From the NCBI GenBank assembly GCA_012813795.1, contig GCA_012813795.1_4087.1: a stretch of 64,000 bases of DNA; one strand, given 5' to 3'. Numbering within the stretch: the stretch's first letter is position 1; every line of letters begins with the position of its first letter. Source of the stretch: a phage. This document shows, in pieces, positions 311 to 64,000 of this stretch. The notes below the pieces were generated by a model. The model had not been told where the DNA came from and did no database searches. It saw only the letters and a list, made by a program, of their open reading frames with translations. A program made the position numbers and the translations under genes.

Positions 311-400
311 TCACTTCGTTCTCTCGTAACTCAAGAATTCGTTTCGTTATCTACGATAACTCACTCATTCATATTAATTAATATTGTATTGTACTTTTAA

Positions 401-950
401 AGATTGACGGGATTTGTTGAGGACATTTTCATCCCCCCGCAGGGGAATGATATTAAAAAAGAACCAATGAAGGTTCTTGATTTTGACGCTGATGGCATCG
501 GAATTTATCGAATTGCGAATTTCTCCATATTTTGGACGGTTCAAGGGTGTCCAATTTTTGGAGAACGAAAGCGGGTTGCTCTGTTTCTCTCTATCGCAGT
601 CATATGCAACGGTCGCAGGTATTTTCATCCCCTGCACTAAAGTACTGGAACTATTCGATCAATTCAGTACTCGTTTTACTCAATTTTTGGGTGCAACTTT
701 CCCGTAGAAAAATTGACCGCTTGTTTTAAGTAAAACTCCCTTAGCAAATCTGGTAAGGTGCGATCCTTATACATCTATCGAGGAACTCTCTGTATGCTTA
801 TCGGAGTTCTTTATTGAGCCGTGTCGCCGTGTGATCCGTGTCTTATTTCGCGTTTGTATGAATGCACTTGGATGGTACTAACGGGTTTCTTTTGCTCATC
901 GCCTCAGTGGGAAGGCTCATCTATCCTTTACATTTTCAAGAGAAGTAGGT
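401..950. repeat. Direct-repeat element copy A: long non-coding region with invariant cores at 567-597 and 736-771 and a GC hairpin at 433-445
   Basis: About 720 bp without a convincing ORF; shares blocks with 63490-63965 including identical 31-nt and 36-nt cores at the same spacing (139 vs 141 nt) and a stem whose loop differs between copies. Confidence 0.55.
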
Positions 951-1030
951 TCTTCTTGTCCGTTGTTAAAACGTCCACTGACATTTTCCATTACAATATA
1001 ATTATAGCACAATATAAAGTATTGTCCCAA

Positions 1031-1444
1031 TTACATATAAACTTTTTTCAATTCTTTGCTGCTTCGTTCAAATACTGTTTCAATGAACTCAATATCCTGA
1101 AGAAGCTGTAGAGTACTGGCATCTGTCTCATTGCGTGACACATTTCTGTACTTTTGTTCAGGGTGATTGAATACCACCTTGACTACACTATTTAGGTCTA
1201 CAAAATTTGACGTTTTTTTCGTATAGGAAGCCTGAAGCTTAATATACTTCCCATTATCTTGTAGATTAGTTTTATGAATTAGTTCTTCAATACCTGTAAG
1301 ATGTAAATAACTATCTTCTTCTTTGACGAATGTAATAGTCAACAGTACTGTCTTTTCGTCTCCCATGTCAGAGATATTTTTCACAGCACTAACAATTTCC
1401 AAGTTTGAAAAATCTAAATCTTTAAGCATTACACATATTTCCAC
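1031..1444 (-). CDS. hypothetical protein
   Basis: 137-aa minus-strand ORF, hydrophilic composition, packed with neighbours. Confidence 0.5.
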   Translation of the reverse strand: MEICVMLKDLDFSNLEIVSAVKNISDMGDEKTVLLTITFVKEEDSYLHLTGIEELIHKTNLQDNGKYIKLQASYTKKTSNFVDLNSVVKVVFNHPEQKYRNVSRNETDASTLQLLQDIEFIETVFERSSKELKKVYM

Positions 1445-28138: not shown

Positions 28139-31100
28139 ATGAAACCAATAGCTGGCTTAGATCAATTTCCATTTGTTATAGGTGGATTGCAGGTTACTGC
28201 TGCAAAGATAGAAGGGCAAGTATTTGTTAAAGAATTGTATGTTATAAAACAAAGAACATTCGATTCGTATGATTTGATATCTGAAAATTTCAAGATTTAC
28301 AAAGATATAAAAATCACAGGTAGAAATAAAGATAAATCAACATTGACGTATGATGATGACGATGCTGAAATTGCTAAATCTTTAGCAAATAATACATTTT
28401 GCATAAAAGAATCTGATGATTTTAACAAAAAATATGGTTTTGGTATACAATATCAATTGAATAAAATAAAATTACATAATGGTGAAGTGATATTTAGACA
28501 ATCCTCAATTCGACCATCAGTACTTAATGGTGTTTTCATTACACCGAGTTCATTTGAGATTGATGTTGGTCAACAACAAGTATTTGACGCGATATATGAT
28601 CCACAAAGTTGGATTAATAAAAATGGTACTTGGGATTATGATAAATCAGTTTTTGATGTGGTTTCTTTTACACAAACATCAATCACACTTCTCGCTAAAC
28701 AAGATGCCATTAATACAGAAATAAAATATTCACCTACTGGACGAGAAATAAATCGCATAGCAGTCAGTATAGGTTCAGTAGTAGATAACACTTCTATAAT
28801 TAAAAACATTTCAATAACACCTAATGTCATAAATTCCAAATTATCTGAAGATTTTACAGTTAATGTAGTTTATGATCCTATCAAATATAAATTCAAATCA
28901 GGTAAATGGTCTGTCAGTGATACATCAGTACTACAATTTGTTTCTGGTGATGGTGAAACTGCGACATTTAAACCTATCAGCGTTGGTTCTTCCACAATAA
29001 CATTCACATTAGATAAAGATAGTACAAAAACTGCAACTGCATCAGTTGAAGTATCTTATGCAGATTTAAAATCCGTCACAATATCACCAGAAAATGTAAC
29101 TGGTACTATAGGTGAAACTGGTAGTATTTCAATAAGTTATGTACCAGATAATGCACAAAAAGGTGGTTCATGGGCTATTTCTGATAAATTAATACTAAAA
29201 GAATTATCATCGACAATATCAGAATTTGATTATGAATTGGTTGGTAATGGAACAACATATGCTACATTCGTCCCATTAGCTAATTATGATGGTTCAATGA
29301 TAACTGCTAAATTTGATGTTAACTATTCAAAACTTGAAAACATTGTTCTTACACCTTCATCAGTTAGTAATCTAGTTCCAGGCGACACAGGAAAAATTAG
29401 TATTGAATATACACCAAGTACTGTTGAAACTGGTGGTACATGGTCATTCAATCCAACTGGTGTAATAGAACAAGATCTCAGCAAAAGTACGAGTACTGAA
29501 ATGTATTATAATGTATTAATCCCAGGTACATCAACTGCAACATTCCACCCAACTGCGTCATATGATGGAACTCCTAAAACTGTTTCATTTGAAGTTGGGA
29601 ATTCCGAGTTAACTGGTATTACGCTAACACCTACTACATCAACCGTAAAAATTGGTGATGATTTCTATATTGATATTACATATGAACCAAACACTGCTCT
29701 ACATGAAGGTACATGGAATACATCAGATTTTGAGAAATATGTAACACTCGAATCAGATAGTACACCTGATCGTGCACATTTTAAAGCTATAGGTGTGATT
29801 GATTCTGTTAATCTGACATATTCAAAAGGAACAATTAGTGCAACTAACAAATGTGCAGTTAATTATTCTGATTTAAAATCTATCACATTAAGTCCAACTG
29901 CAACATATGCTAAACTTGGTGATGATTTCTATGTAGATATTGCATATGATCCAGACACAGCACAACACACGGGTTCATGGAATACATCAGATTTTGAGAA
30001 ATATGTAACACTAGAATCAGATAGTACACCTGACCGTGCACACTTCAAAGCAATTGATTTAGTTGATGAAGTTGATTTGGTATATTCGAATGGTAATATA
30101 AGTGATACGAATTATTGTGGAGTTAGTCGTCCACCATTAATTTCAGTTTCATTGTCACCTTCTTCTGAAAAAGTTAAAGTTGGTGATTCCTTTAATGTGA
30201 AGATTACATATAACCCTAATACTGCTCAACATTACGGTGAATGGAATTTGGATGAAATAAAAGAATATCTTACATATGATTCGGATCTTAGTGTTTATGA
30301 TGTGGCTGTGTTTGATGTTATTAAACGTTCTGAAACACCAATAGAATTGAAATTTACAAGTGCAGGTAAAACTGCAACAAACACTTGTGAATTTGAAGAA
30401 GCTGTGTTAACCGGAATTTCATTGAAAATACAAGAAAATACGCCAATATACGACAGCCTATATGTTGTACCATATAAAGGTGACATATATATTGATGTTC
30501 TACCTATTCCAGCCGACGCAAAATTACCAGACGATATTGGAACCATCACTGATAATACGGGATTATATGATTTAACGTTTTTTGATTTTTTGAGTTTTAA
30601 TAAAGAAAAAAGTACAAATCACCGTTTGTATTTTGATTTTGTTTCATCATTTGATGAGTATATGTATTTTATTGAGGAATCTTCAAAAGGATTAATATTC
30701 ACATATACACTGTCTAATGGTATGACGGTAGACTCACCGGCAATGGTAACAAATTTTCCAGAACTGACGAAAGTCACCCTTGTGCCATCATCTGGAAAAT
30801 GTGATGTTAACTCAATAATAAAATGCGAGGCAACACTTGATAATGGTATGTCAACTTATTATATTAATCCGTTGAGTACTTATACAAGTGAACACGAGGA
30901 TTATTTGGTAATTGAAGATAGAACATCCTTTCAGCCGTTTGATGAATTCCTTGAACCAATTGAAATTGTAGGTAAACTTCCAACAAATATATATGTACCA
31001 GATGGTAATTACGTATATTTCACATATACACTATCAACCACACCTGCCCAACCGTTGATTGATTATAATATTTACATATATGATAGTAATGAATGTATAA

Positions 31101-31426
31101 AAGGACGTATAAAAAATCCAACAGACGTAGTTAACATAAAATATATGAATGTCTTTTTCTTTGACATAGAGAATAATCCACCAAATGCTTTATATAGAGG
31201 AAAAATGGAAGGTGGTATTCCTGTTACGTTTCAATATGACACCCAAAATTCTAGATTAAATTCGTATACTTATATGGTACAGGGGGTAACTGATGGACCA
31301 ATAACTCTAAAATACACTTCATCTGCTACTGGTGTTATTAGAACTGCACAAGTTGATGTTACTGGACCAATGACTGATGATAGTAATAAAACTGATGAGG
31401 GGGGTGATGGTGATTTACTTAAATGA
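28139..31426 (+). CDS. Giant Ig-like (Big_2/Hoc-like) repeat protein 1
   Basis: 1095 aa built from ~85-90-aa repeats with Y.DLKS ... GD.FY.DI.Y.PDTA.H.G.W ... F.A pattern; AAGGAGA upstream; two near-identical 264-bp tandem DNA repeats inside. Confidence 0.65.
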   Translation: MKPIAGLDQFPFVIGGLQVTAAKIEGQVFVKELYVIKQRTFDSYDLISENFKIYKDIKITGRNKDKSTLTYDDDDAEIAKSLANNTFCIKESDDFNKKYGFGIQYQLNKIKLHNGEVIFRQSSIRPSVLNGVFITPSSFEIDVGQQQVFDAIYDPQSWINKNGTWDYDKSVFDVVSFTQTSITLLAKQDAINTEIKYSPTGREINRIAVSIGSVVDNTSIIKNISITPNVINSKLSEDFTVNVVYDPIKYKFKSGKWSVSDTSVLQFVSGDGETATFKPISVGSSTITFTLDKDSTKTATASVEVSYADLKSVTISPENVTGTIGETGSISISYVPDNAQKGGSWAISDKLILKELSSTISEFDYELVGNGTTYATFVPLANYDGSMITAKFDVNYSKLENIVLTPSSVSNLVPGDTGKISIEYTPSTVETGGTWSFNPTGVIEQDLSKSTSTEMYYNVLIPGTSTATFHPTASYDGTPKTVSFEVGNSELTGITLTPTTSTVKIGDDFYIDITYEPNTALHEGTWNTSDFEKYVTLESDSTPDRAHFKAIGVIDSVNLTYSKGTISATNKCAVNYSDLKSITLSPTATYAKLGDDFYVDIAYDPDTAQHTGSWNTSDFEKYVTLESDSTPDRAHFKAIDLVDEVDLVYSNGNISDTNYCGVSRPPLISVSLSPSSEKVKVGDSFNVKITYNPNTAQHYGEWNLDEIKEYLTYDSDLSVYDVAVFDVIKRSETPIELKFTSAGKTATNTCEFEEAVLTGISLKIQENTPIYDSLYVVPYKGDIYIDVLPIPADAKLPDDIGTITDNTGLYDLTFFDFLSFNKEKSTNHRLYFDFVSSFDEYMYFIEESSKGLIFTYTLSNGMTVDSPAMVTNFPELTKVTLVPSSGKCDVNSIIKCEATLDNGMSTYYINPLSTYTSEHEDYLVIEDRTSFQPFDEFLEPIEIVGKLPTNIYVPDGNYVYFTYTLSTTPAQPLIDYNIYIYDSNECIKGRIKNPTDVVNIKYMNVFFFDIENNPPNALYRGKMEGGIPVTFQYDTQNSRLNSYTYMVQGVTDGPITLKYTSSATGVIRTAQVDVTGPMTDDSNKTDEGGDGDLLK

Positions 31427-31462
31427 TTATAAATTAATTTTAATGCTAAGGAGAAATATTTT

Positions 31463-33982
31463 ATGGCAGAATTAAAATCAATTAGATTTAACAATAATGG
31501 TGTTGTAAACAGCACCATTTATAAAACCAGTACTATAACGGTTACATATGACCCAGTTGATTGGTATGATCAAACTGGGAAATGGGTATATGATAGTACG
31601 TATATTAAAGTGTTGTATAGGAGTGGTGAGAAACTTATTTTCAAAACACTCAAAGAAGGAAACACAAATATATCATTTTCACCAACTAATTATGATTCTT
31701 TAAAACAAACGTGTACTGTTGATATTCATACCGATACAGTTCAAAGTATCTCATTGAATCCAACTGAAAACATGTTGAAGTATAGTTCTGAATTTGAAAT
31801 CGATGTCACTTATAACCCACCAATTGGCACGGATCTTCCAACATGGACATATGATAAAAATGTTTTAACATATGATGCTGAAAAAAGTACAAGGGATAAA
31901 GCTTTCTTTAAAGTAAATTCTAGTGTTTTAAGTCCAGTATCAGGTAAGATTACATGTACGTATGGTGTAGATTTATCAGCGGAAAGTTTTTATTACGTGT
32001 CCGAAAACCCCGCATCACGTGTAAAATTGTCTCCTGATACATCAAACGTACTACTTGGTGATACGTTCTCAGTTAATATTTTATATGATCCACTTGGGTG
32101 TGATAAAACTGGTGTATGGAGTTACGATGATACATGTCTTGAATACAACGAATCACGCTCAACTTCTGATGTTGCATATTTTAAAGCAATTAAAACACCA
32201 GAAGGAAATAATGACACGTTAAAATTAACATATAAATGTGCATCATCCGTGTCCGATTCAACAACGTGTACAATATCATATGATCCATTGCAATCAGTTA
32301 AATTGACAACAATCCCAGCTTCATTGAATCCAGATGCAATGATAAACGTAAAAGCTGGGGATGGGTTTAGTGTTAAGGTCACATATGTCCCAGACACCGC
32401 CAGACATGATGGTGTTTTGAATTTTAACCCACTATATTTCACCTATGAAAAAGACCAATCTGCACAAGACACTTTTTTAATCACACCAATTCTACCATCT
32501 ATAGACACTGATGAACCTGTGCAGCCGATATCTTTTACTTCTAACGGGATTATATCAAATATACTCAATTTCACAATAGATTATTCTGACCTTGTTTCGG
32601 TATCTTTTGACCCACCAGAAGTTAATACAACCGCTGGTTCTGTATTTGGTGTAACTGTGATTTATAATCCAAGCACAGCTAAAAATGACGGTGAATGGAA
32701 CATTGCTAATGTTCTGGATTATATTAAAAAAGGAACAACAGTCGGTGATTCAACTTCATTCCAATCTTTGAAAGCCACAGTTGATAGTGATGGAAACCCA
32801 TCAAGTATAGATATGGTTTACAAAAGTGGTTATATCAGTACACCTATTAAATGTAACATTGATTATAGTGAGTTGAAATCTATTAATGTAAAATGTGATC
32901 CGTCATATCCACTGAATACTTCTCTTGGGATAATAGCAACATATACACCAGACACCGCAAAACATGATGGTGTATGGACATGTTCATCAGATTTAATTCC
33001 AGGTGCATCTACTCCAGATCTTGGGTCATTCCGTACAGGTAAATTAGTAAATGCAAAAAGTGTAGTTACTGTAACATCTAAATCCAATAAAGATATTGGT
33101 GCATCATGTGGATTTACCTCAACTTATTCTAAGTTAAAAGGTATAACAGTAACACCACTTGGAACAACAACAGTTAAACCTGGTGATTCATTTGGTATAC
33201 AAATATCGTATAATCCAAACACTGCACAGCATCTTGGTATGTATAATTGGGATTTTAACCCTGATTATTTTGAATATAACTATGAGTTGTCAGAGCCAAA
33301 CAAAGATATACAATATTTTAATGCTTTATTACCCACACCAGAAGAAGGTTCAGTACTAACATGTCTCCCACCTGAAGGGTCTGGTGCTACATCTGGTAAA
33401 TGTGTAATAACCGTTAGTTATCCTCCAATCAAATCAGTGTCTATTGAACCACCTGAATCAACTCATAAATTTGGTGATGTGTTCAACCTTATCGTGAAAT
33501 ATGATCCAGATACAGCAAGAAAAATGGGTACATGGGAATATGATAAAGATCGAATAGCATTAGTTAATCCGGTAACCGACCTTAACGATCAAGCAACATT
33601 TTATGTTATCAATAACGGTATAGGTGGAGAAACGGATATATCATATTCATATTATCCAGGCGTAACTGCAACACATAAGTGTACTGTAGAATATGAAAAC
33701 TTGGATACCCTAAGTTTAGTTCCTCCAAGAATCAAGAAAAAACCAGGTAATACTTTCTATATAAAAATCATATACACACCAGATGGTGCATTACATGATG
33801 GTACATGGACATACAATAAAACTGTATTTGAATATACACAGGAAAGTACTAAAGATTTGGGAGTTTTTAAAATTTCCGACACTGCTCCTGAAGGTGCATA
33901 CCAATTATCATATCAACCAAAAACTGCTGATCCAGATCAAACATTCCCACCTGTAATTTTACAATGCACTATTACAAAATAA
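31463..33982 (+). CDS. Giant Ig-like repeat protein 2
   Basis: 839 aa with the same repeat signature (YNPNTAQHLGMYNWD, YTPDTAKHDGVWT); AAGGAGA upstream. Confidence 0.65.
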   Translation: MAELKSIRFNNNGVVNSTIYKTSTITVTYDPVDWYDQTGKWVYDSTYIKVLYRSGEKLIFKTLKEGNTNISFSPTNYDSLKQTCTVDIHTDTVQSISLNPTENMLKYSSEFEIDVTYNPPIGTDLPTWTYDKNVLTYDAEKSTRDKAFFKVNSSVLSPVSGKITCTYGVDLSAESFYYVSENPASRVKLSPDTSNVLLGDTFSVNILYDPLGCDKTGVWSYDDTCLEYNESRSTSDVAYFKAIKTPEGNNDTLKLTYKCASSVSDSTTCTISYDPLQSVKLTTIPASLNPDAMINVKAGDGFSVKVTYVPDTARHDGVLNFNPLYFTYEKDQSAQDTFLITPILPSIDTDEPVQPISFTSNGIISNILNFTIDYSDLVSVSFDPPEVNTTAGSVFGVTVIYNPSTAKNDGEWNIANVLDYIKKGTTVGDSTSFQSLKATVDSDGNPSSIDMVYKSGYISTPIKCNIDYSELKSINVKCDPSYPLNTSLGIIATYTPDTAKHDGVWTCSSDLIPGASTPDLGSFRTGKLVNAKSVVTVTSKSNKDIGASCGFTSTYSKLKGITVTPLGTTTVKPGDSFGIQISYNPNTAQHLGMYNWDFNPDYFEYNYELSEPNKDIQYFNALLPTPEEGSVLTCLPPEGSGATSGKCVITVSYPPIKSVSIEPPESTHKFGDVFNLIVKYDPDTARKMGTWEYDKDRIALVNPVTDLNDQATFYVINNGIGGETDISYSYYPGVTATHKCTVEYENLDTLSLVPPRIKKKPGNTFYIKIIYTPDGALHDGTWTYNKTVFEYTQESTKDLGVFKISDTAPEGAYQLSYQPKTADPDQTFPPVILQCTITK

Positions 33983-34052
33983 TAGACTGAAATTACTTTA
34001 CAAAAAAAATGTGGTTGAATATTCAACCACATAATAAGAAGGAAACATAATT

Positions 34053-35678
34053 ATGATAGAAGATTCAAAAAATCTTATTTCAGTTAGTTTAAACAAAAGA
34101 ACTATTAGAACTTCTGTTCGTGATGTTAACACATTATATGTTAGTTTTAATCCACCTGACTATATTAATCAGGTTGGAACATGGACATATGATGAACAGT
34201 ATATTGAAATGATCACACAAGATAATTTGGTTTTTGTTTTTAAATCTATAAAAAGTGGTGTAACCACCATAACATACACACCACGTGATAATAAAGCATT
34301 ATCGAAGAATTGTATAGTTAATATTGAAAAAATACCATTATCATCAATTAGTCTTAACCCAAATTATATAACTTTATACAAAGGTCAAACTTTTGATATT
34401 GATATATCATATATCCCAGATGGAGCAGTTCATTCGGGTAATTGGAGTAATTTAAACAATGATATATTGTATATAGGTCAACAAAGTACACCTGATAAAT
34501 CAAGAATGCAAGTACTAACAACTGATGCTAAGATGATAACTTTATATTATACCAGTGGCGAAATATCAGTTCCTTTGAATTGTACTATATTGAACAACCC
34601 AGCAGATGAAATTATTTTCGATCCACCATCACCAATTAATGTAACAGTTGGTGAGAGTTTTTTTGTAAACATAAACTATGCACCAGAAAATGCGGATAAG
34701 GTTGGATTCTGGGAATATGATGATTCAGTACTGATGTTATTGAATGATAGTGATAAGGCATCCAGTGCACATTTTGTGGCTACCAAAAAAACCACATCAA
34801 CTGGAACTGAACTTAAATTCCGTTCAGGTGATGTGTACTCAACGTTACAGTGCTTTATAACTCCTGGTGTTTTAGATTTATTAACATTAACACCTAGTTA
34901 TGAAACGGTGGTTGTTGGTGACGCGTTTGACATTGGAATAACCTATTACCCAGAAGACATAATTCACAAAGGTATATGGGAATATGATTCTACATATTTC
35001 AAAAAAATGTTCGATGACTCAAATACTGCAACATTTAGATTAATCAAAAAATCCGACATACCATTAAAATTAAGATATATCTCTTATGGGAGAGCATTTA
35101 ATAATATATGCACTACTGTTGAAAATGGTGATTTAGTTTCATTACAATTAAACCCTAATTCCGAATCAGTTGAGGTTGGTAAAAGTTTTGATATCGCAAT
35201 AACATATAAACCTGATAATGCTTTACATAGTGGTATATGGGATTTCGATTCGGAATATATTAAATTGGAAAAATCAAGTACAGTGGATAAAGCAACATTT
35301 ACAGTACTGAAATATAATCCAAATCCATTAACATTAACTTATAAATCAGGTAAAACAACTGCAACAAACAAATGTATTACTGTAAAAAATACACCAGTAT
35401 TAAGTAGTATTAAAGTATCCCCAGAATCAACTGAAATGAAAGTTGGTGATACAGTATTATTATCAATTTCATACAACCCTAATACAGTAGAGCATATGGG
35501 AATGTGGTATTATGATAAAAAACTATTCAAATTAATAGACACAGGTCAAACACATGACTATGGTATATTTGAATGCTTGGCGGTGTCAGACGCAAAATCA
35601 CCAATAGTATTTTCAAGTGCTGGAAATGCTGATGCTTGTATTGTCACAACTAAAGAAAAAACAACTAAAGAGGATTAA
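34053..35678 (+). CDS. Giant Ig-like repeat protein 3
   Basis: 541 aa, same repeat signature (YIPDGAVHSGNW, YKPDNALHSGIW). Confidence 0.65.
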   Translation: MIEDSKNLISVSLNKRTIRTSVRDVNTLYVSFNPPDYINQVGTWTYDEQYIEMITQDNLVFVFKSIKSGVTTITYTPRDNKALSKNCIVNIEKIPLSSISLNPNYITLYKGQTFDIDISYIPDGAVHSGNWSNLNNDILYIGQQSTPDKSRMQVLTTDAKMITLYYTSGEISVPLNCTILNNPADEIIFDPPSPINVTVGESFFVNINYAPENADKVGFWEYDDSVLMLLNDSDKASSAHFVATKKTTSTGTELKFRSGDVYSTLQCFITPGVLDLLTLTPSYETVVVGDAFDIGITYYPEDIIHKGIWEYDSTYFKKMFDDSNTATFRLIKKSDIPLKLRYISYGRAFNNICTTVENGDLVSLQLNPNSESVEVGKSFDIAITYKPDNALHSGIWDFDSEYIKLEKSSTVDKATFTVLKYNPNPLTLTYKSGKTTATNKCITVKNTPVLSSIKVSPESTEMKVGDTVLLSISYNPNTVEHMGMWYYDKKLFKLIDTGQTHDYGIFECLAVSDAKSPIVFSSAGNADACIVTTKEKTTKED

Positions 35679-35681
35679 ATC

Positions 35682-37883
35682 ATGTCAAAAGATGATCAAT
35701 TAACATCTGTTACCCTACAACCAGAATCAGTAACACTGAATGTGGGTGACAATAAAATTGTATATGCAGTTTATACACCAAATACATATACACCAAAAAA
35801 AGGTAAATGGATATATGATGCAAATATTGTATCTGTTACACATGAAGAAGATACCTTTATGCAATTCATTGCAGTAAAACCTTCTGAAACTGAAATAACG
35901 TACATTCCATTGGGTGCACCTGAATTTGCTTGTAGTACAGTTGTTACAATTAAAGGTACTGATCCAACAGATGATTTGGTATTAGATCCAGAAAACGAAA
36001 CAGTTCAGGTCAATACTGATTTTTATATTAATGTAAAATATAATCAAGCAGATGGTATCCCAACATGGAAATATGACCAATCTGTAGTTAAATATATGCC
36101 TGATAGTACACCTAGTAAAGCACACTTTAAAGCACTAAAAACTACTGCGAATAGTATTCCTTTGGTTTGTGAATGCGGAAATAACACTAAAATGAATTTA
36201 TGTACAGTTGTTGATACTGCGGCCACCATATCATTGAATCCACAACACGTAACTAAACAAGTTGGTGACGACTATTATGTTGATATTTTTTACTCCAAAA
36301 AAGTTCAAGATCCAGTAGTTACATGGGACGGTACTGATGAGTTTTTAGAATTACAACCTGATAGCAACCCATACCGTGCTCATTTCAAAGTTGTAAAATA
36401 TTCTGAAGATCTTGTTTCAAGAAGAATTACAACTTCAATGGGTAAAAGTGCCACACATACCTGTGTTACACGTTATAGTGATTTGAAAAACATTTTCATT
36501 GATTATCCAAGTAAAAATTTAATGGTTGGTGACCAATTTAAATTAACAGCGTTGTATTATCCAGATACGGCAAATCATGATGCTAAATGGTCGTTTGATT
36601 CTGGTAATTTTATTATTGATAGTAGTAGAACCACGCCAAATGAAGCATACTTCACTGCACTAAAAGCAACATCAGGGGCAGACTTCAAGAGTATTACATT
36701 GAGTAGTGGTACATTTAAAGATGAATGTAAATGTATAATTAATGAATCCTCATACTCAGAAGAAGATAATGTGCCAGTACTAAATCAACGTGCAAGTGGG
36801 GATTTGGATAGTGTTGTAGTAACTCCATTAACAATTGCATCCAGAGTTGGGCAGCCTAAAATTATATCTGCGGTTTTCGAACCAAGAGATTATAGTGATA
36901 AATCAGGAACTTGGATGTATGATCCACAAACACTTGACGTATTGTCTGAACAAGATAACTATATAATCATAAAACCGAACCATATTAGTAATACATTTGT
37001 TGAATTTGTTTCCAATGATAAACCTTCATTTAGTTCTAATTGTTCCATCGTGGTTTCAAGTGATGGTTTTGTAATTTCACCAACACACCAACATGTAAAA
37101 TTAACTGAAGATTTTTATATTGATGTTTTATTCGATGAATCGAAAGGTAAACCAGTATGGAGATACGATACTAATTACATAAAAATGTTGGATGACAGTA
37201 CTGATACCAAACCACATTTTCAAGCATTTAATATGACAAGTGAGGATGAATTAATAACCAAATTAGTATGTTCGTATGACAATATGGAACAAATATTCAC
37301 TTGTTATATTGATAAAAATACTAACCCAATATCATGTCACCCATCAAAATCATTACAATTTATGTCATCTGATTTTTGGATAAATGTTGCATATGATAAA
37401 GAAAATACAAAATCTTCTTTATTGGATGTCGATTTTATTACATGGGATGATGATAATGAATACGTTGAACTACAACCTGACAGTACCTCTTTCGTAGCCC
37501 ATTTCAAAGTTGTGAAATATAAAAATGGTCAAATTACAAGAACAGCAACCTCCAAATCTGGACATACCGCCACATTTGCCATATCATTATATTCACCATA
37601 TACTTACATCGATATGACACCACAATTTGAAACTTATTCTATGAATAGTATTATAGTTTTGAGCATAAATTACGGAGGTAGTCCATATACACCTGAATAC
37701 AAAAAATTCAATGACATGTTAAATTATGATTCTAGATTTCTGCAATTGGAGGATGATAGTACTGGCGATAAACTATACTTCACTCCTTTATCTCCAACAG
37801 GAAATAACTTTACAACTGTTATATTTTCCGACGATAACACACGTTTGATGTCTGCAAAAAGTTGCATTACAATTAAAAAATAA
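35682..37883 (+). CDS. Giant Ig-like repeat protein 4
   Basis: 733 aa; more diverged repeats (YYPDTANHDAKWSFD); AGAGGA upstream; ends at bidirectional terminator. Confidence 0.6.
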   Translation: MSKDDQLTSVTLQPESVTLNVGDNKIVYAVYTPNTYTPKKGKWIYDANIVSVTHEEDTFMQFIAVKPSETEITYIPLGAPEFACSTVVTIKGTDPTDDLVLDPENETVQVNTDFYINVKYNQADGIPTWKYDQSVVKYMPDSTPSKAHFKALKTTANSIPLVCECGNNTKMNLCTVVDTAATISLNPQHVTKQVGDDYYVDIFYSKKVQDPVVTWDGTDEFLELQPDSNPYRAHFKVVKYSEDLVSRRITTSMGKSATHTCVTRYSDLKNIFIDYPSKNLMVGDQFKLTALYYPDTANHDAKWSFDSGNFIIDSSRTTPNEAYFTALKATSGADFKSITLSSGTFKDECKCIINESSYSEEDNVPVLNQRASGDLDSVVVTPLTIASRVGQPKIISAVFEPRDYSDKSGTWMYDPQTLDVLSEQDNYIIIKPNHISNTFVEFVSNDKPSFSSNCSIVVSSDGFVISPTHQHVKLTEDFYIDVLFDESKGKPVWRYDTNYIKMLDDSTDTKPHFQAFNMTSEDELITKLVCSYDNMEQIFTCYIDKNTNPISCHPSKSLQFMSSDFWINVAYDKENTKSSLLDVDFITWDDDNEYVELQPDSTSFVAHFKVVKYKNGQITRTATSKSGHTATFAISLYSPYTYIDMTPQFETYSMNSIIVLSINYGGSPYTPEYKKFNDMLNYDSRFLQLEDDSTGDKLYFTPLSPTGNNFTTVIFSDDNTRLMSAKSCITIKK

Positions 37884-61741: not shown

Positions 61742-62277
61742 GGTTCTTTCCTCATGTATTTTATTACATCTTTAAAAAGTTTTATTTTCAAGTCATTATC
61801 ATCACCTGGTAGATAAGAACTAAAGCTTTCAAAATCATCACGCTTAGCAAAAGAACGCATTTCAGTTGAACTGTACTTGCTAACGTTTCGGTCAATACCA
61901 GCTTGGATTGCTTTTATATTACGAAAATTATACAAGTTTCCATTGTATCTGTCAAGTACATTTTGAAAGTTTTCTATCCTGTCTGAACCACATATGAAAA
62001 GAACATCACTGTACTTACCATTCAATTCCTGCATAATATCAAAAAGATTATCTTCAGTACTGATGTTGTGTTGAATTCTTGGATAGAAACCCTCAGTGTA
62101 ATACATTTTCAATTCAGGTGGTAATGGATTCTTAATACAATCTTGTGTAGTACTAAGGTATATTTTTAAATCAGCATTGTATTGTTCTTTCATCGATACG
62201 GCTTTATCAAAAATTAACCCATGTCCCAAATGCACTGGATTTATACGTCCATACGTTACTATACAAGTGTCTTTCAT
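61738..62277 (-). CDS. HxGH-family nucleotidyltransferase, NMN adenylyltransferase-like (NadM/PPAT type)
   Basis: N-terminal YGRINPVHLGHG (GRxxPxHxGH) and later KYSSTEMR (ISSTxxR-like) motifs; 179 aa. Confidence 0.55.
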   Translation of the reverse strand: MKDTCIVTYGRINPVHLGHGLIFDKAVSMKEQYNADLKIYLSTTQDCIKNPLPPELKMYYTEGFYPRIQHNISTEDNLFDIMQELNGKYSDVLFICGSDRIENFQNVLDRYNGNLYNFRNIKAIQAGIDRNVSKYSSTEMRSFAKRDDFESFSSYLPGDDNDLKIKLFKDVIKYMRKEP

Positions 62278-62801
62278 ATATTCTTCATCACCTGACCGAG
62301 AGATTTAAGATAGTTGATTTTAGCTGGTGTTAAGTACTTATCCAGTACTATTAAACAGCTAGGGAATGGAGCACTATCAGTCTTTTTATCTGGTTCTTCA
62401 GGGATGCCAAATTTTAAACGTCCTTTAATAAAACAAATACAGTCACAAAGCTTAGATGCATATTCCTGAAATGCAATTGTATCAGTACGTGATGGAACAA
62501 GTATCAGTACTGTTGCACCATTATTATAAGCATCAACTGCCTTAGATAGCCAAGGTTTTAAGTCACTGTAAGGGGGATTTAACCAGACGATATTGTTTCC
62601 CCAATCCTGTGAAAGACTATCATCTTCCGGTGTAAAAAACTTGTCACATAATGCAGTTTCTTTAACACATGCTGCATCCAGTGTGAATTCCCAGACTTCA
62701 TCCAAATCTTCAAAGAATTCCTTTGGAGTAGTCCAGTTATCTTTTCCAGTACTGAAGTGTACCGAATGTTTGTTTTTTGTGGGATTATCCTTTTTCCCCA
62801 T
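62274..62801 (-). CDS. Phage-type DNA N6-adenine methyltransferase (Dam family)
   Basis: WTTPKEFF ... FTLDAAC ... VWLNPPYS matches the Dam motif pattern (DAAC, NPPY). Confidence 0.8.
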   Translation of the reverse strand: MGKKDNPTKNKHSVHFSTGKDNWTTPKEFFEDLDEVWEFTLDAACVKETALCDKFFTPEDDSLSQDWGNNIVWLNPPYSDLKPWLSKAVDAYNNGATVLILVPSRTDTIAFQEYASKLCDCICFIKGRLKFGIPEEPDKKTDSAPFPSCLIVLDKYLTPAKINYLKSLGQVMKNI

Positions 62802-62818: not shown

Positions 62819-63361
62819 TTATAGACAGTTCTGTAAGATATTATCGAACAGTTTACTGTCCAGGTTGTACTCATATAAAAATTTAAATCTAGAACCGTAC
62901 TTCATCATTATATTGAATGCTTCATCTTCTGCTAATACATAGAAGTTGAAGTCATCTACTGTACCATTGAACCCAATAAAATCCATAATTTCAATAGTAA
63001 CATCATGTCCTTGATGGAAGTACTTCACTGACAAAGGGAGTCCAAGAACACTATATTGTCTGGATTCCCCTTCTAATTTCCCATCTACTACATGGAATTT
63101 CCTTGATACTGTATTAGAATTATATCGCTCTTCTCCGTAATGTCCATAGCGAACAGAAAAAATTACTGGGTTTTTTGTAGGTCTACAAGTGATTTTTGCT
63201 AGTTCTACACCTCCCATGTACTCAACAATATGATTGATAGTTCCTTTTTCTTTTACTATTTTATATCCATCAAATGAATCTCTATCAAATTCTTCTAGTA
63301 CTTCAAATTCTTTTGATTTATAAATGATCTCTGTTGTTTTGTTCTTTGAAAATACAGGCAT
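62819..63361 (-). CDS. hypothetical protein
   Basis: 180-aa ORF; AAGGA upstream; lies immediately downstream of repeat element copy B. Confidence 0.5.
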   Translation of the reverse strand: MPVFSKNKTTEIIYKSKEFEVLEEFDRDSFDGYKIVKEKGTINHIVEYMGGVELAKITCRPTKNPVIFSVRYGHYGEERYNSNTVSRKFHVVDGKLEGESRQYSVLGLPLSVKYFHQGHDVTIEIMDFIGFNGTVDDFNFYVLAEDEAFNIMMKYGSRFKFLYEYNLDSKLFDNILQNCL

Positions 63362-63489
63362 TATTATTCCTTTTTAGGAAACATCAAATAATGTACTCGA
63401 TATTGATTTCGTTTGCACTCAATCAACATCAGTAGAATTAATTCATCGCTACGCTCTGAATAATTCTAATAGTACTAAATGGTTTTAAT

Positions 63490-63965
63490 TAATATTGACG
63501 AGGTTTGGAAGAGCATATTTCATCCCCCCACTGGGGGAAAGAATTAAAATTTGACGCTGGTGGTCTTCACATATTTCATATCACGAATTCTCTTAACGAG
63601 GCGAAAGCGGGTTGCTCTGTTTCTCTCTATCGCGGTTCTTGTAGCAACGGTCGTCGGTCTTAAACATCCCGACACATAATACGAGTACCATATGAACAGT
63701 ACTGGTATTTGATTTCACCAAATTTTGGACGCAACTATCTTGTACAAATAGTTGACCGCAATTTCTAATGAAATCTCCCTTAGCAAATCTGGTAAGGTGC
63801 GATCCTTATATGTCTATCTAGGAACTCTCTGTGTGCTTATCGGAGTTCTTTATACAGCCGCATTGCCGTGAGGGGTTCATAATATGCCCACATCTGACGG
63901 GTTTCATCTGCTGTTCGTACTGAAAGGACTACTCATCTACCCTCTACATTTTCGAGTGGATTAGG
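63490..63965. repeat. Direct-repeat element copy B: invariant cores at 63603-63633 and 63774-63809, GC hairpin at 63524-63538
   Basis: No ORF of 60 aa or more in 63362-64000; same block order, spacing and conserved terminal segment as copy A. Confidence 0.55.
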
Positions 63966-64000
63966 CTCTTAATCATTTCCATATGGAACCTTTCAGGATT

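Follow-up and report, generated by a model that had tools for sequence, protein, structure and literature searches.

A candidate family of large pseudoknotted RNA genes dispersed over the genomes of Rak2-like jumbo phages

The closest described likenesses of the element reported here are the 'ornate' RNAs GOLLD, ROOL, OLE and those of the raiA type, which exceed 400 nt, are rich in pseudoknots and highly conserved loops, contain no open reading frame (ORF), are often borne by phages or prophages, were found through covariation and have uncharacterised functions. We analysed a 64,000-nt stretch of phage DNA (contig GCA_012813795.1_4087.1 of GenBank assembly GCA_012813795.1; hereafter the window), which carries near its two ends copies A and B of a long non-coding element that resembles these RNAs in all the above respects. 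The putative product, referred to below as the Rak2-like RNA after the jumbo phages that encode it, differs from them in having no match in Rfam 15, in being confined to a single jumbo-phage clade, in its 2-5 paralogues at fixed loci and in its recognisable promoters. Large structured RNAs with invariant loops are rare and have repeatedly proved to be ribozymes, cores of ribonucleoproteins (RNPs) or unusual assemblies. GOLLD and ROOL are described in a preprint as forming RNA-only complexes (bioRxiv 10.1101/2024.12.08.627333).

The nearest precedent in kind comes from a related clade. RNA-seq of the Pseudomonas jumbo phage PA5oct revealed four ORF-free transcripts from intergenic regions, ncRNA001-004, of 236-619 nt, and two of these lncRNAs (long non-coding RNAs) rank among the most abundant transcripts of the phage (PMC7318152). 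They show that phages of this type do make lncRNAs. We detected no homology to the Rak2-like RNA by nhmmer on the four PA5oct loci, and a covariance model of its core, run with filters off, scored at most 15 bits at these loci and gave nothing on the annotated RNAs.

Other known systems share parts of its organization. Promoter-driven origin transcripts are established for T4 and ColE1, and both RNA II of ColE1 (~550 nt) and oriF/oriG of T4 combine, like the present element, a promoter with a transcript that is a few hundred nucleotides long and for which folding is important; moreover, the G-rich 3' region of the Rak2-like RNA could form an RNA-DNA hybrid, and T4 also has multiple origins. 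The Rak2-like loci differ in that no GC-skew signal was seen around copy B, in that the terminator mostly comes before the G-run and in being conserved beyond the known needs of priming. In turn, the put RNA of HK022 and other RNAs of antitermination in cis are structured RNAs located right after a promoter and upstream of long operons, an arrangement that the copy B locus fits. In contrast to put, the Rak2-like RNA is seven times larger, has one locus with no co-directional downstream gene and is mostly predicted to be a terminated, free-standing transcript. Sibling RNAs such as Qrr1-5 and CsrB/CsrC also come as several paralogues with a shared core, a variable periphery and their own promoter and terminator, but they are much smaller or built of repeated simple motifs, and none has a multi-pseudoknot core.

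The window corresponds, as reverse complement, to part of the genome of Escherichia phage A4 (ON286972.1, 355.5 kb), a virulent Rak2-like jumbo phage of the genus Asteriusvirus. BLAST placed copy B on the reverse strand of A4 at 65138-65738 (99.8% identity) and the counterpart of copy A at 125708-126368. Pairwise alignment of window 330-1000 with 63400-64000 gave a mean column identity of 78%, with indels of 23, 32, 18 and 24 nt and several more of 1-5 nt, several of them not multiples of three. This bears out the original prediction, made from the letters of the window alone, that a block at 63490-63965 repeats in the same orientation an element located at about 400-950. The conserved terminal segment that it described is present in the alignment of both copies, and so is the GC hairpin, whose loop differs between the two (C6-GCA-G4 in copy A, C6-ACT-G5 in copy B). 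The limits had to be moved, as the conserved body reaches 63969 and the 5' leader passes the window end at 64000. Of the two identical cores, that of 36 nt stands (736-771 = 63775-63810), while the one given as 31 nt measures 32 nt (566-597 = 63602-63633); exact blocks of 20 and 13 nt are also common to both copies. Neither core occurs again in the 64-kb window on either strand. Profile search (nhmmer) and covariance model alike recovered exactly two copies in the window, which scored 130-151 bits in the latter against 14 bits for the next-best match, and the two have a G+C content of 41% versus 34% in the window. What had been overlooked is that the pair belongs to a family of 2-5 members and that a promoter lies just outside the coordinates first noted. 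The earlier interpretation was thus partly right, the observation itself being confirmed.

Covarying fold and strand of the element

Judged from its sequence, the element is very probably a conserved structured-RNA gene on the minus strand of the window. A conserved promoter, a covarying fold, a usual terminator, the lack of an ORF and fixed multi-copy loci together point to a free-standing gene of this kind, copy B being one of a predicted 2-5 paralogous non-coding RNA genes of ~0.5 kb per Rak2-like genome.

The fold was examined in an alignment of 61 sequences, from which copies more than 96.5% identical had been removed. RNAalifold on 24 copies found compensatory double changes in 27 of 48 pairs. 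The structure assembled on the 61-sequence alignment comprises 77 pairs in 17 helices, four of which are pseudoknot helices. Standard pairs fill 94.9% of its cells, as against 77.1% in column shuffles (none of 500 shuffles reached the observed value) and 33-41% when the partners are slid by 1-3 columns. The covariation score is 0.464, compared with 0.160 for column shuffles and at most 0.087 for slid partners, and 54 of the 77 pairs are changed on both sides (40.9 in column shuffles, 18-37 with slid partners). The core domain (alignment A7) is the clearest part in these terms: 98.6% of its cells are paired, where shuffles give 81.6%, and covariation is seen in 25 of 32 pairs.

The core hairpin consists of a near-invariant stem, GUUGC/GCAAC, around a purine-rich loop of ~26-28 nt, and in divergent copies the stem covaries to GUUAC/GUAAC or GUUGU/ACAAC. 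The 3' part of its loop (GAGAG) pairs with CUUUC directly past the stem to form an H-type pseudoknot, PK2, which is paired in 99.7% of cells; one of its pairs appears as AU (31), GC (24) or CG (2), and the central pair as G-U (41) or A-U (19). In the plus sense, the same region offers CGAAAG/CGGAAG/CGCAAG, which we had considered as a GNRA tetraloop and rejected, as the variation is really PK2 covariation in the minus sense. One 11-nt strand, located ~90-150 nt downstream, is the pairing partner of both the sequence UGCGA in the core loop and the loop of hairpin P5. The bridge helix at columns 565-570/724-729 of alignment A6 is 100% Watson-Crick with six of six pairs covarying, and that at columns 628-632/719-723 is 99% paired with four of five pairs covarying. 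The 5' domain is formed by nested helices plus two loop-to-strand pseudoknots, each helix having 2-4 covarying pairs and 87-100% of cells paired.

An optional short module occupies two alternative sites, namely the tip of P2 and the interval between P5 and GCUAAGGGAG, and has the look of an insertable sub-domain. In the plus sense it reads AAUUUUGGACG (also given as AATTTTGGACG), followed by a hairpin with a UAUUGUAUAAA-like (TATTGTAYAAA-like) loop and by CGC. It is found at 529-560 and 683-720 in copy A and at 63729-63763 in copy B.

The original prediction had read the element on the plus strand. Three independent lines, i.e., wobble pairs, promoter and terminator, indicate that the RNA strand is the window minus strand. 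As for the first, the core helices contain 203 G-U against 7 A-C combinations in the minus sense, and canonical pairs make up 98.7% of core pairs in this sense versus 88.6% in the plus sense. Helices chosen strand-neutrally still give 110 G-U against 59 A-C. Read in the plus sense, the central pair of PK2 becomes an A-C mismatch in 41 sequences, two-thirds of the set, and the A-C found in the terminator stem of copy A is likewise a G-U in the minus sense.

As for the promoter, we found the minus-strand motif TGnTA(T/C)A(A/C)T in the right flank of 73 of 79 copies (shuffle mean 2.3) and near variants in the other six; on the plus strand, the motif (TGnTAYAMT) is present there in none of the 79. 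A -35-like TG(G/A)(G/A)AC(A/G) precedes the extended -10 TGnTATAAT by 16-17 nt, and the whole is located 20-70 nt upstream of the conserved body. A promoter class with a TGAAACG -35 and a TATA -10, concentrated upstream of DNA-synthesis genes, was described for phage CBB (PMC5259590). The third line is an intrinsic terminator, a hairpin followed by a U-run in the minus sense at the end of the body, which is present in 35 of the 61 aligned copies. At the locus next to the gene of DNA endonuclease VII, the RNA gene is divergent from that gene and convergent with baseplate-hub genes, and there it keeps both its own promoter and its own terminator.

Beyond the terminator, all 61 aligned copies retain a 3' tail block (alignment A5 columns 17-60; window 63495-63537 and 406-445). 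On the plus strand it shows TTGACG-N17-T(T/A)TCAT followed by a C5-6/G4-6 hairpin, and in the RNA sense it contains an invariant GGGGGAU. The alignment yielded no pairing partner for this block. An ORF starting at the AUG after the G-run was rejected, its frame being broken by 1-nt indels between copies.

Protein coding is also ruled out for the element as a whole, as had been supposed from the start. Its longest ORFs (26-90 codons) vary in strand, frame, position and length between copies, each of the six frames of copy B holds 6-11 stop codons, and the small ORFs annotated over the element in some records are inconsistent between genomes. Nor did we recognise any known family. The 4227 models of Rfam 15, which include group I/II introns, RNase P, tmRNA, 6S, GOLLD, ROOL, OLE, HEARO and raiA, gave no match in the whole window at gathering thresholds, and with both strands of both copies searched up to E = 10 the best hits reached 13-23 bits against thresholds of 39-90 bits. 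ARAGORN found no tRNA or tmRNA in the window. CRISPR repeat models CRISPR-DR39, DR37 and DR57 hit the GC hairpin of copy A with 18-23 bits, compared with thresholds of 39-40; the motif occurs once per element and no array was seen on reading the sequence, no repeat search of the flanks having been run. UAAGG/CCUUA, as well as CCUGCGG in the loop of the GC hairpin, resemble the 3' end of 16S rRNA, a likeness that was set aside, since these positions covary or vary freely.

Full-text literature searches, partly poorly targeted, retrieved no description of the element. A large screen for structured viral RNAs reported motifs of only 29-151 nt (PMC10690425), and fragments of the Rak2-like phage RNA might be among them.

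Distribution and synteny of the family

With four different copies as BLAST queries, we obtained 62-72 phage records that contain the element, every one from a Rak2-like jumbo phage, the hosts being Escherichia, Salmonella, Klebsiella, Yersinia, Erwinia, Serratia, Pectobacterium, Cronobacter and Xanthomonas. The number of places per record is 2-5, mostly 4-5, and 2 in the RaK2/K64-1 group. The family was enlarged by pattern scans of IMG/VR, of JGI/ENA metagenomes and of GTDB genomes, followed by profile filtering, which brought the total to 96 distinct copies. Among the pattern matches from metagenomes, 64 of 67 proved true members. The matches of the pattern GCGGGTTGC-N26-32-GCAACGGTC in IMG/VR (L104-L107, L109-L114) were chance matches in GC-rich coding sequence and were discarded after inspection and nhmmer. 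A divergent subfamily in ENA metagenome contigs of the OERT... and OEQO... series (L135, L137, L138, L159, L172, L174) retains the core domain, which scores 103-128 bits, together with the promoter and the G-run tail, including AUGRAAAU, while its 5' half is different and more G+C-rich and the promoter-like spacing on the plus strand of the tail is lost.

Species-representative genomes of bacteria and archaea yielded only three true matches among 100,044. Full-scoring RNA cores (153-158 bits) are carried by WJYB01000004.1 (L199, 299 kb, assigned to 'Enterobacteriaceae bacterium RIT714') and by NZ_JAMGZK010000045.1 (L200, 185 kb, Silvania hatchlandensis). These two contigs are probably jumbo-phage genomes co-assembled with their host, by carrier state or contamination.

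The loci of the element are fixed. The copy B neighbourhood runs from Dam methyltransferase through a 180-aa protein and the element to a 279-280-aa protein, and this order recurs in XaC1, fENko-Kae01, EJP2, Kaldavass, XbC2 and GAP32. A second locus is always located between the baseplate-hub genes and DNA endonuclease VII. The copy A type sits at ~260 kb in GAP32, fHe-Yen9-04 and XbC2, and BLAST placed it at a similar position in Serratia phage BF and in CBB. Within the genomes examined, all copies have a uniform orientation.

In the five Asteriusvirus genomes for which the spacing was computed, 54.7-60.6 kb separate the two copies of the window. Loss or rearrangement of this interval had been proposed as a sign of recombination between the repeats; in the Asteriusvirus genomes compared, both copies are retained in the same orientation and no such sign was seen. 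Retention of the interval and synteny of the loci between genera mark the copies as ancient paralogues rather than recent repeats. Similarly, a mobile repeat (miniature inverted-repeat transposable element or insertion-sequence remnant) is rejected by the fixed insertion sites and the synteny across genera, no search for terminal inverted repeats or target-site duplications having been made. We agree with the original prediction that the copies are not attachment-site duplications or a prophage border: they are ~500 nt long, diverged to 78% identity, located in a virulent jumbo-phage genome and conserved in position in relatives.

Several of the loci carry features worth recording in their own right. 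One RNA copy of Klebsiella phage RaK2 adjoins the putative RNA polymerase sigma-factor gene RaK2_00244 (L004 1943-2839). In Escherichia phage UE-S1, part of a paralogous copy is annotated as 'repeat_region' (L115 2873-3030), which the genome paper does not discuss (PMC12805682).

Features of the two copies and their neighbours

The coordinates of the two copies are collected in Table 1.

Table 1. Predicted features of copies A and B and genes next to copy B (window coordinates).
Feature	Position	Strand	Remarks
Copy B	63493-63969	minus	conserved RNA body 63969-63553 and conserved 3' tail 63552-63493; nhmmer, covariance model, alignment A6
Copy B 5' leader	63970-64000, cut by window end	minus	in A4 runs to the equivalent of 64037; 68 nt in total
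Copy B promoter	equivalent of 64038-64075, ~38-75 nt past window end	minus	phage A4 flank, alignment A6
Copy B promoter -10, GTGATATAAT	equivalent of 64038-64048	minus	phage A4 flank (locus L001)
5' domain	63824-63956	minus	Ha 63942-63956, Hb 63917-63932, Hc 63910-63914/63854-63858, hairpin 63824-63846
36-nt block identical in A and B	63775-63810	minus	contains hairpin UAAGG...CCUUA 63793-63808
Near-invariant GCUAAGGGAG	63775-63785	minus	its UGC pairs with the loop of hairpin 63824-63846
P5 hairpin	63678-63709	minus	loop in long-range pseudoknot; 8/8 pairs changed on both sides; G-U 62 vs A-C 4
P4 hairpin	63652-63674	minus	variable length; 4/5 pairs covary
Core hairpin GUUGC/GCAAC	63611-63648	minus	mostly inside the 32-nt A/B block 63602-63633
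PK2	63603-63627	minus	GAGAG 63623-63627 with CUUUC 63603-63607
P2 hairpin	63589-63601	minus	short in copy B; 32-nt insertion here in copy A
11-nt bridging strand	63576-63586	minus	pairs with P5 loop 63690-63695 and core-hairpin loop 63630-63634
GC hairpin C6-ACT-G5	63524-63537		in every copy, with variable loop; no U-run after it on either strand
Sigma-70-like block TTGACG, 17 nt, TTTCAT	63495-63523	plus	faces into the element; invariant positions across 61 copies
Downstream co-directional gene	62819-63361	minus	180 aa, phrog_16210
Dam methyltransferase gene	62274-62801	minus	next after gene 62819-63361
Copy A	402-953	minus	RNA body, terminator, GC hairpin and tail
Copy A promoter	-35-like TTGGGACA 1023-1031, extended -10 TGCTATAAT 1001-1009	minus	scan 10/12 with TG extension
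Copy A 5' leader	954-999	minus	alignment mapping
Copy A intrinsic terminator	hairpin 460-477, U-run 453-459	minus	scan flags a canonical terminator at 478-459
Copy A GC hairpin	434-445	minus	part of the 3' end of copy A
Copy A tail	402-433	minus	3' end of copy A

The ORFs flanking both copies are nearly all on the window minus strand, and copy B does lie, as had been stated, directly upstream of a gene of this strand, ending 128 nt from its start codon. Judging by this layout, transcription of copy B probably continues into the 180-aa gene and the Dam gene. On the other side, within L001 6600-6660 of phage A4 (window equivalent 63999-64059), the stop codon of the upstream 279-aa gene appears, by reading of the sequence, to overlap the -10 of the RNA promoter, and the copy B leader contains a hairpin with a U10 run that doubles as the terminator of this gene. 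Since this hairpin and T10 terminator follow directly after the predicted start, read-through from upstream would stop there, and those transcripts that begin at the RNA promoter may escape. Orthologues of other genera show the same layout.

Phage A4 has two putative HNH homing-endonuclease genes, A4_402 and A4_397 (L001 7550-7858 and 9794-10171), less than 4 kb upstream of copy B, which are absent from the copy B locus in the other genera examined. The gene upstream of the copy A promoter (window 1031-1444) encodes a DUF7325 protein (E = 4e-58). Except for Dam, all proteins encoded in the flanks are uncharacterised, and they give no functional clue. Between the two RNA copies, four large ORFs of the plus strand (1095, 839, 541 and 733 aa) form an island at 28139-37883 within the otherwise minus-strand gene array, and the strand switches are not at the RNA genes.

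Competing explanations and possible function

Several points weigh against a free-standing RNA gene. The single-sequence folding energy of the element is no better than that of shuffles on either strand (z = -0.27, -1.34). Unremarkable energies of single sequences are common for RNAs held by tertiary contacts. Some helices show A-C as well as G-U departures, and in P2 there are 30 A-C against 14 G-U. Copy B and all its orthologues lack an intrinsic terminator, so the copy B RNA may be just the 5' part of an mRNA. The 3' block past the terminator equals the RNA body in conservation, and a simple gene model leaves it unexplained. Our literature searches turned up no RNA-seq transcripts for any Rak2-like phage, and action of the RNA in trans is purely inferred.

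Of the alternatives, the one that survives best is that the copies are replication origins, which we regard as rather unlikely. The middle-type promoter would then drive a structured pre-primer RNA that remains as a persistent RNA-DNA hybrid at the 3' G-run/C-run, RNase H processing would prime leading-strand synthesis, and the dispersed copies would be the multiple origins of a 350-kb genome. Having 2-5 dispersed copies per genome, at conserved positions and in one orientation, would suit this role, as would a promoter that directs its transcript into the element and belongs to the class found upstream of DNA-synthesis genes in CBB and GAP32 (PMC5259590). The invariant GGGGGAU and the conserved sequence past the terminator could be the hybrid-forming or start site, and the convergent promoter-like motif on the plus strand recalls an antisense regulator. 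Yet a fold of 500 nt whose invariant 30-nt loops and four pseudoknot helices are conserved across genera is more than priming requires; moreover, the GC skew has no inflection over 12.6 kb around copy B, in most copies an intrinsic terminator comes before the G-run, and no adjacent AT-rich unwinding element was identified.

It is improbable that the element is a cis-acting leader, whose nascent RNA would modify RNA polymerase in the manner of HK022 put or control the translation or stability of the downstream message. The layout of copy B and all its orthologues, which without a terminator stand directly upstream of a long array of co-directional genes, is what such a leader would look like, and throughout the family the element lies just downstream of a promoter. 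Even the terminator that immediately follows other copies has a parallel in the terminators known to follow put sites. A canonical terminator at the body end in more than half of the aligned copies nonetheless speaks for ended transcripts, and the downstream genes differ from locus to locus. Downstream of the RNA gene at the endonuclease VII locus come no genes of its own direction but the baseplate-hub genes, on which it converges; that it has its own promoter and terminator amid opposed neighbours suggests an independent product acting in trans and tells against a general function as leader.

That the plus strand is the functional RNA, transcribed from TTGACG-N17-TTTCAT and antisense to most neighbours, seems very improbable. 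The motif is conserved with a perfect 17-nt spacing in the 61 copies, the plus sense agrees with some of the U-G pairs at the ends of helices, and the genes flanking the endonuclease VII locus are on the plus strand. The wobble pairs of the core and of the centre of PK2 oppose this reading, as does the lack of an extended -10 on that side. In addition, the -10 hexamer of the motif has no A at the critical position 2 and was not reported by the promoter scan, its spacing is lost in the divergent subfamily, and a second TTGACG-like motif is overlapped by helix strands. Least probable of all is a repeat that has no RNA function and acts at the DNA level, such as a hotspot of recombination, a site for packaging or partition or a degenerate mobile element: its dispersal in a single orientation and the conservation of the tail block without a detected pairing partner would agree with it, but compensatory double substitutions keep pairings between positions up to ~150 nt apart, the G-U strand asymmetry suggests a fold of single-stranded RNA, the positions are fixed and syntenic across genera and thus not mobile, and the interval between the copies is retained in the listed Asteriusvirus genomes.

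Returning to the structured-RNA gene, we consider it probable, at a lower level of confidence than the RNA gene itself, that it represents a previously undescribed class of multi-pseudoknot RNAs of ~450-600 nt, which every Rak2-like jumbo phage (Asteriusvirus, Mimasvirus, Eneladusvirus, Alcyoneusvirus and uncultivated relatives) would carry as a core component in multiple copies and which would have a function novel for phages, be it that of a ribozyme, of an RNA-only or RNP machine reprogramming a host process, or of a structured origin-primer RNA. Given an RNA gene, our tentative preference, somewhat short of an even chance, is for a trans-acting RNP scaffold or a ribozyme-like RNA; some other role is a lesser possibility, an origin primer is unlikely and a leader or antitermination RNA acting in cis more doubtful still. 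The RNA would act in trans, either as a folded scaffold to which some conserved protein or machine binds, as an RNP or a decoy, or as a catalyst itself, the invariant 30-nt loops would form its functional surface, and the paralogues may provide dosage or differently timed expression. The genera of these jumbo phages have only about a third of their proteins in common (PMC5259590), and loops of 30 nt kept invariant over such a distance suggest a specific macromolecular partner or catalysis.

Most genes of Rak2-like jumbo phages are uncharacterised, and development of the phages for therapy is under way. Our main finding, a putative new family of genes for large pseudoknotted RNAs, located on the strand opposite to the earlier reading, would place among the most constrained features of these genomes an RNA that is so far unannotated or mis-annotated as tiny ORFs. 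The covariance model can be used to correct the annotation of more than 70 deposited genomes. The E. coli phages 121Q, PBECO4 and A4 offer tractable systems for finding a new RNA function, and the RNA may give a handle on the timing of transcription or on the replication origins of giant phages.

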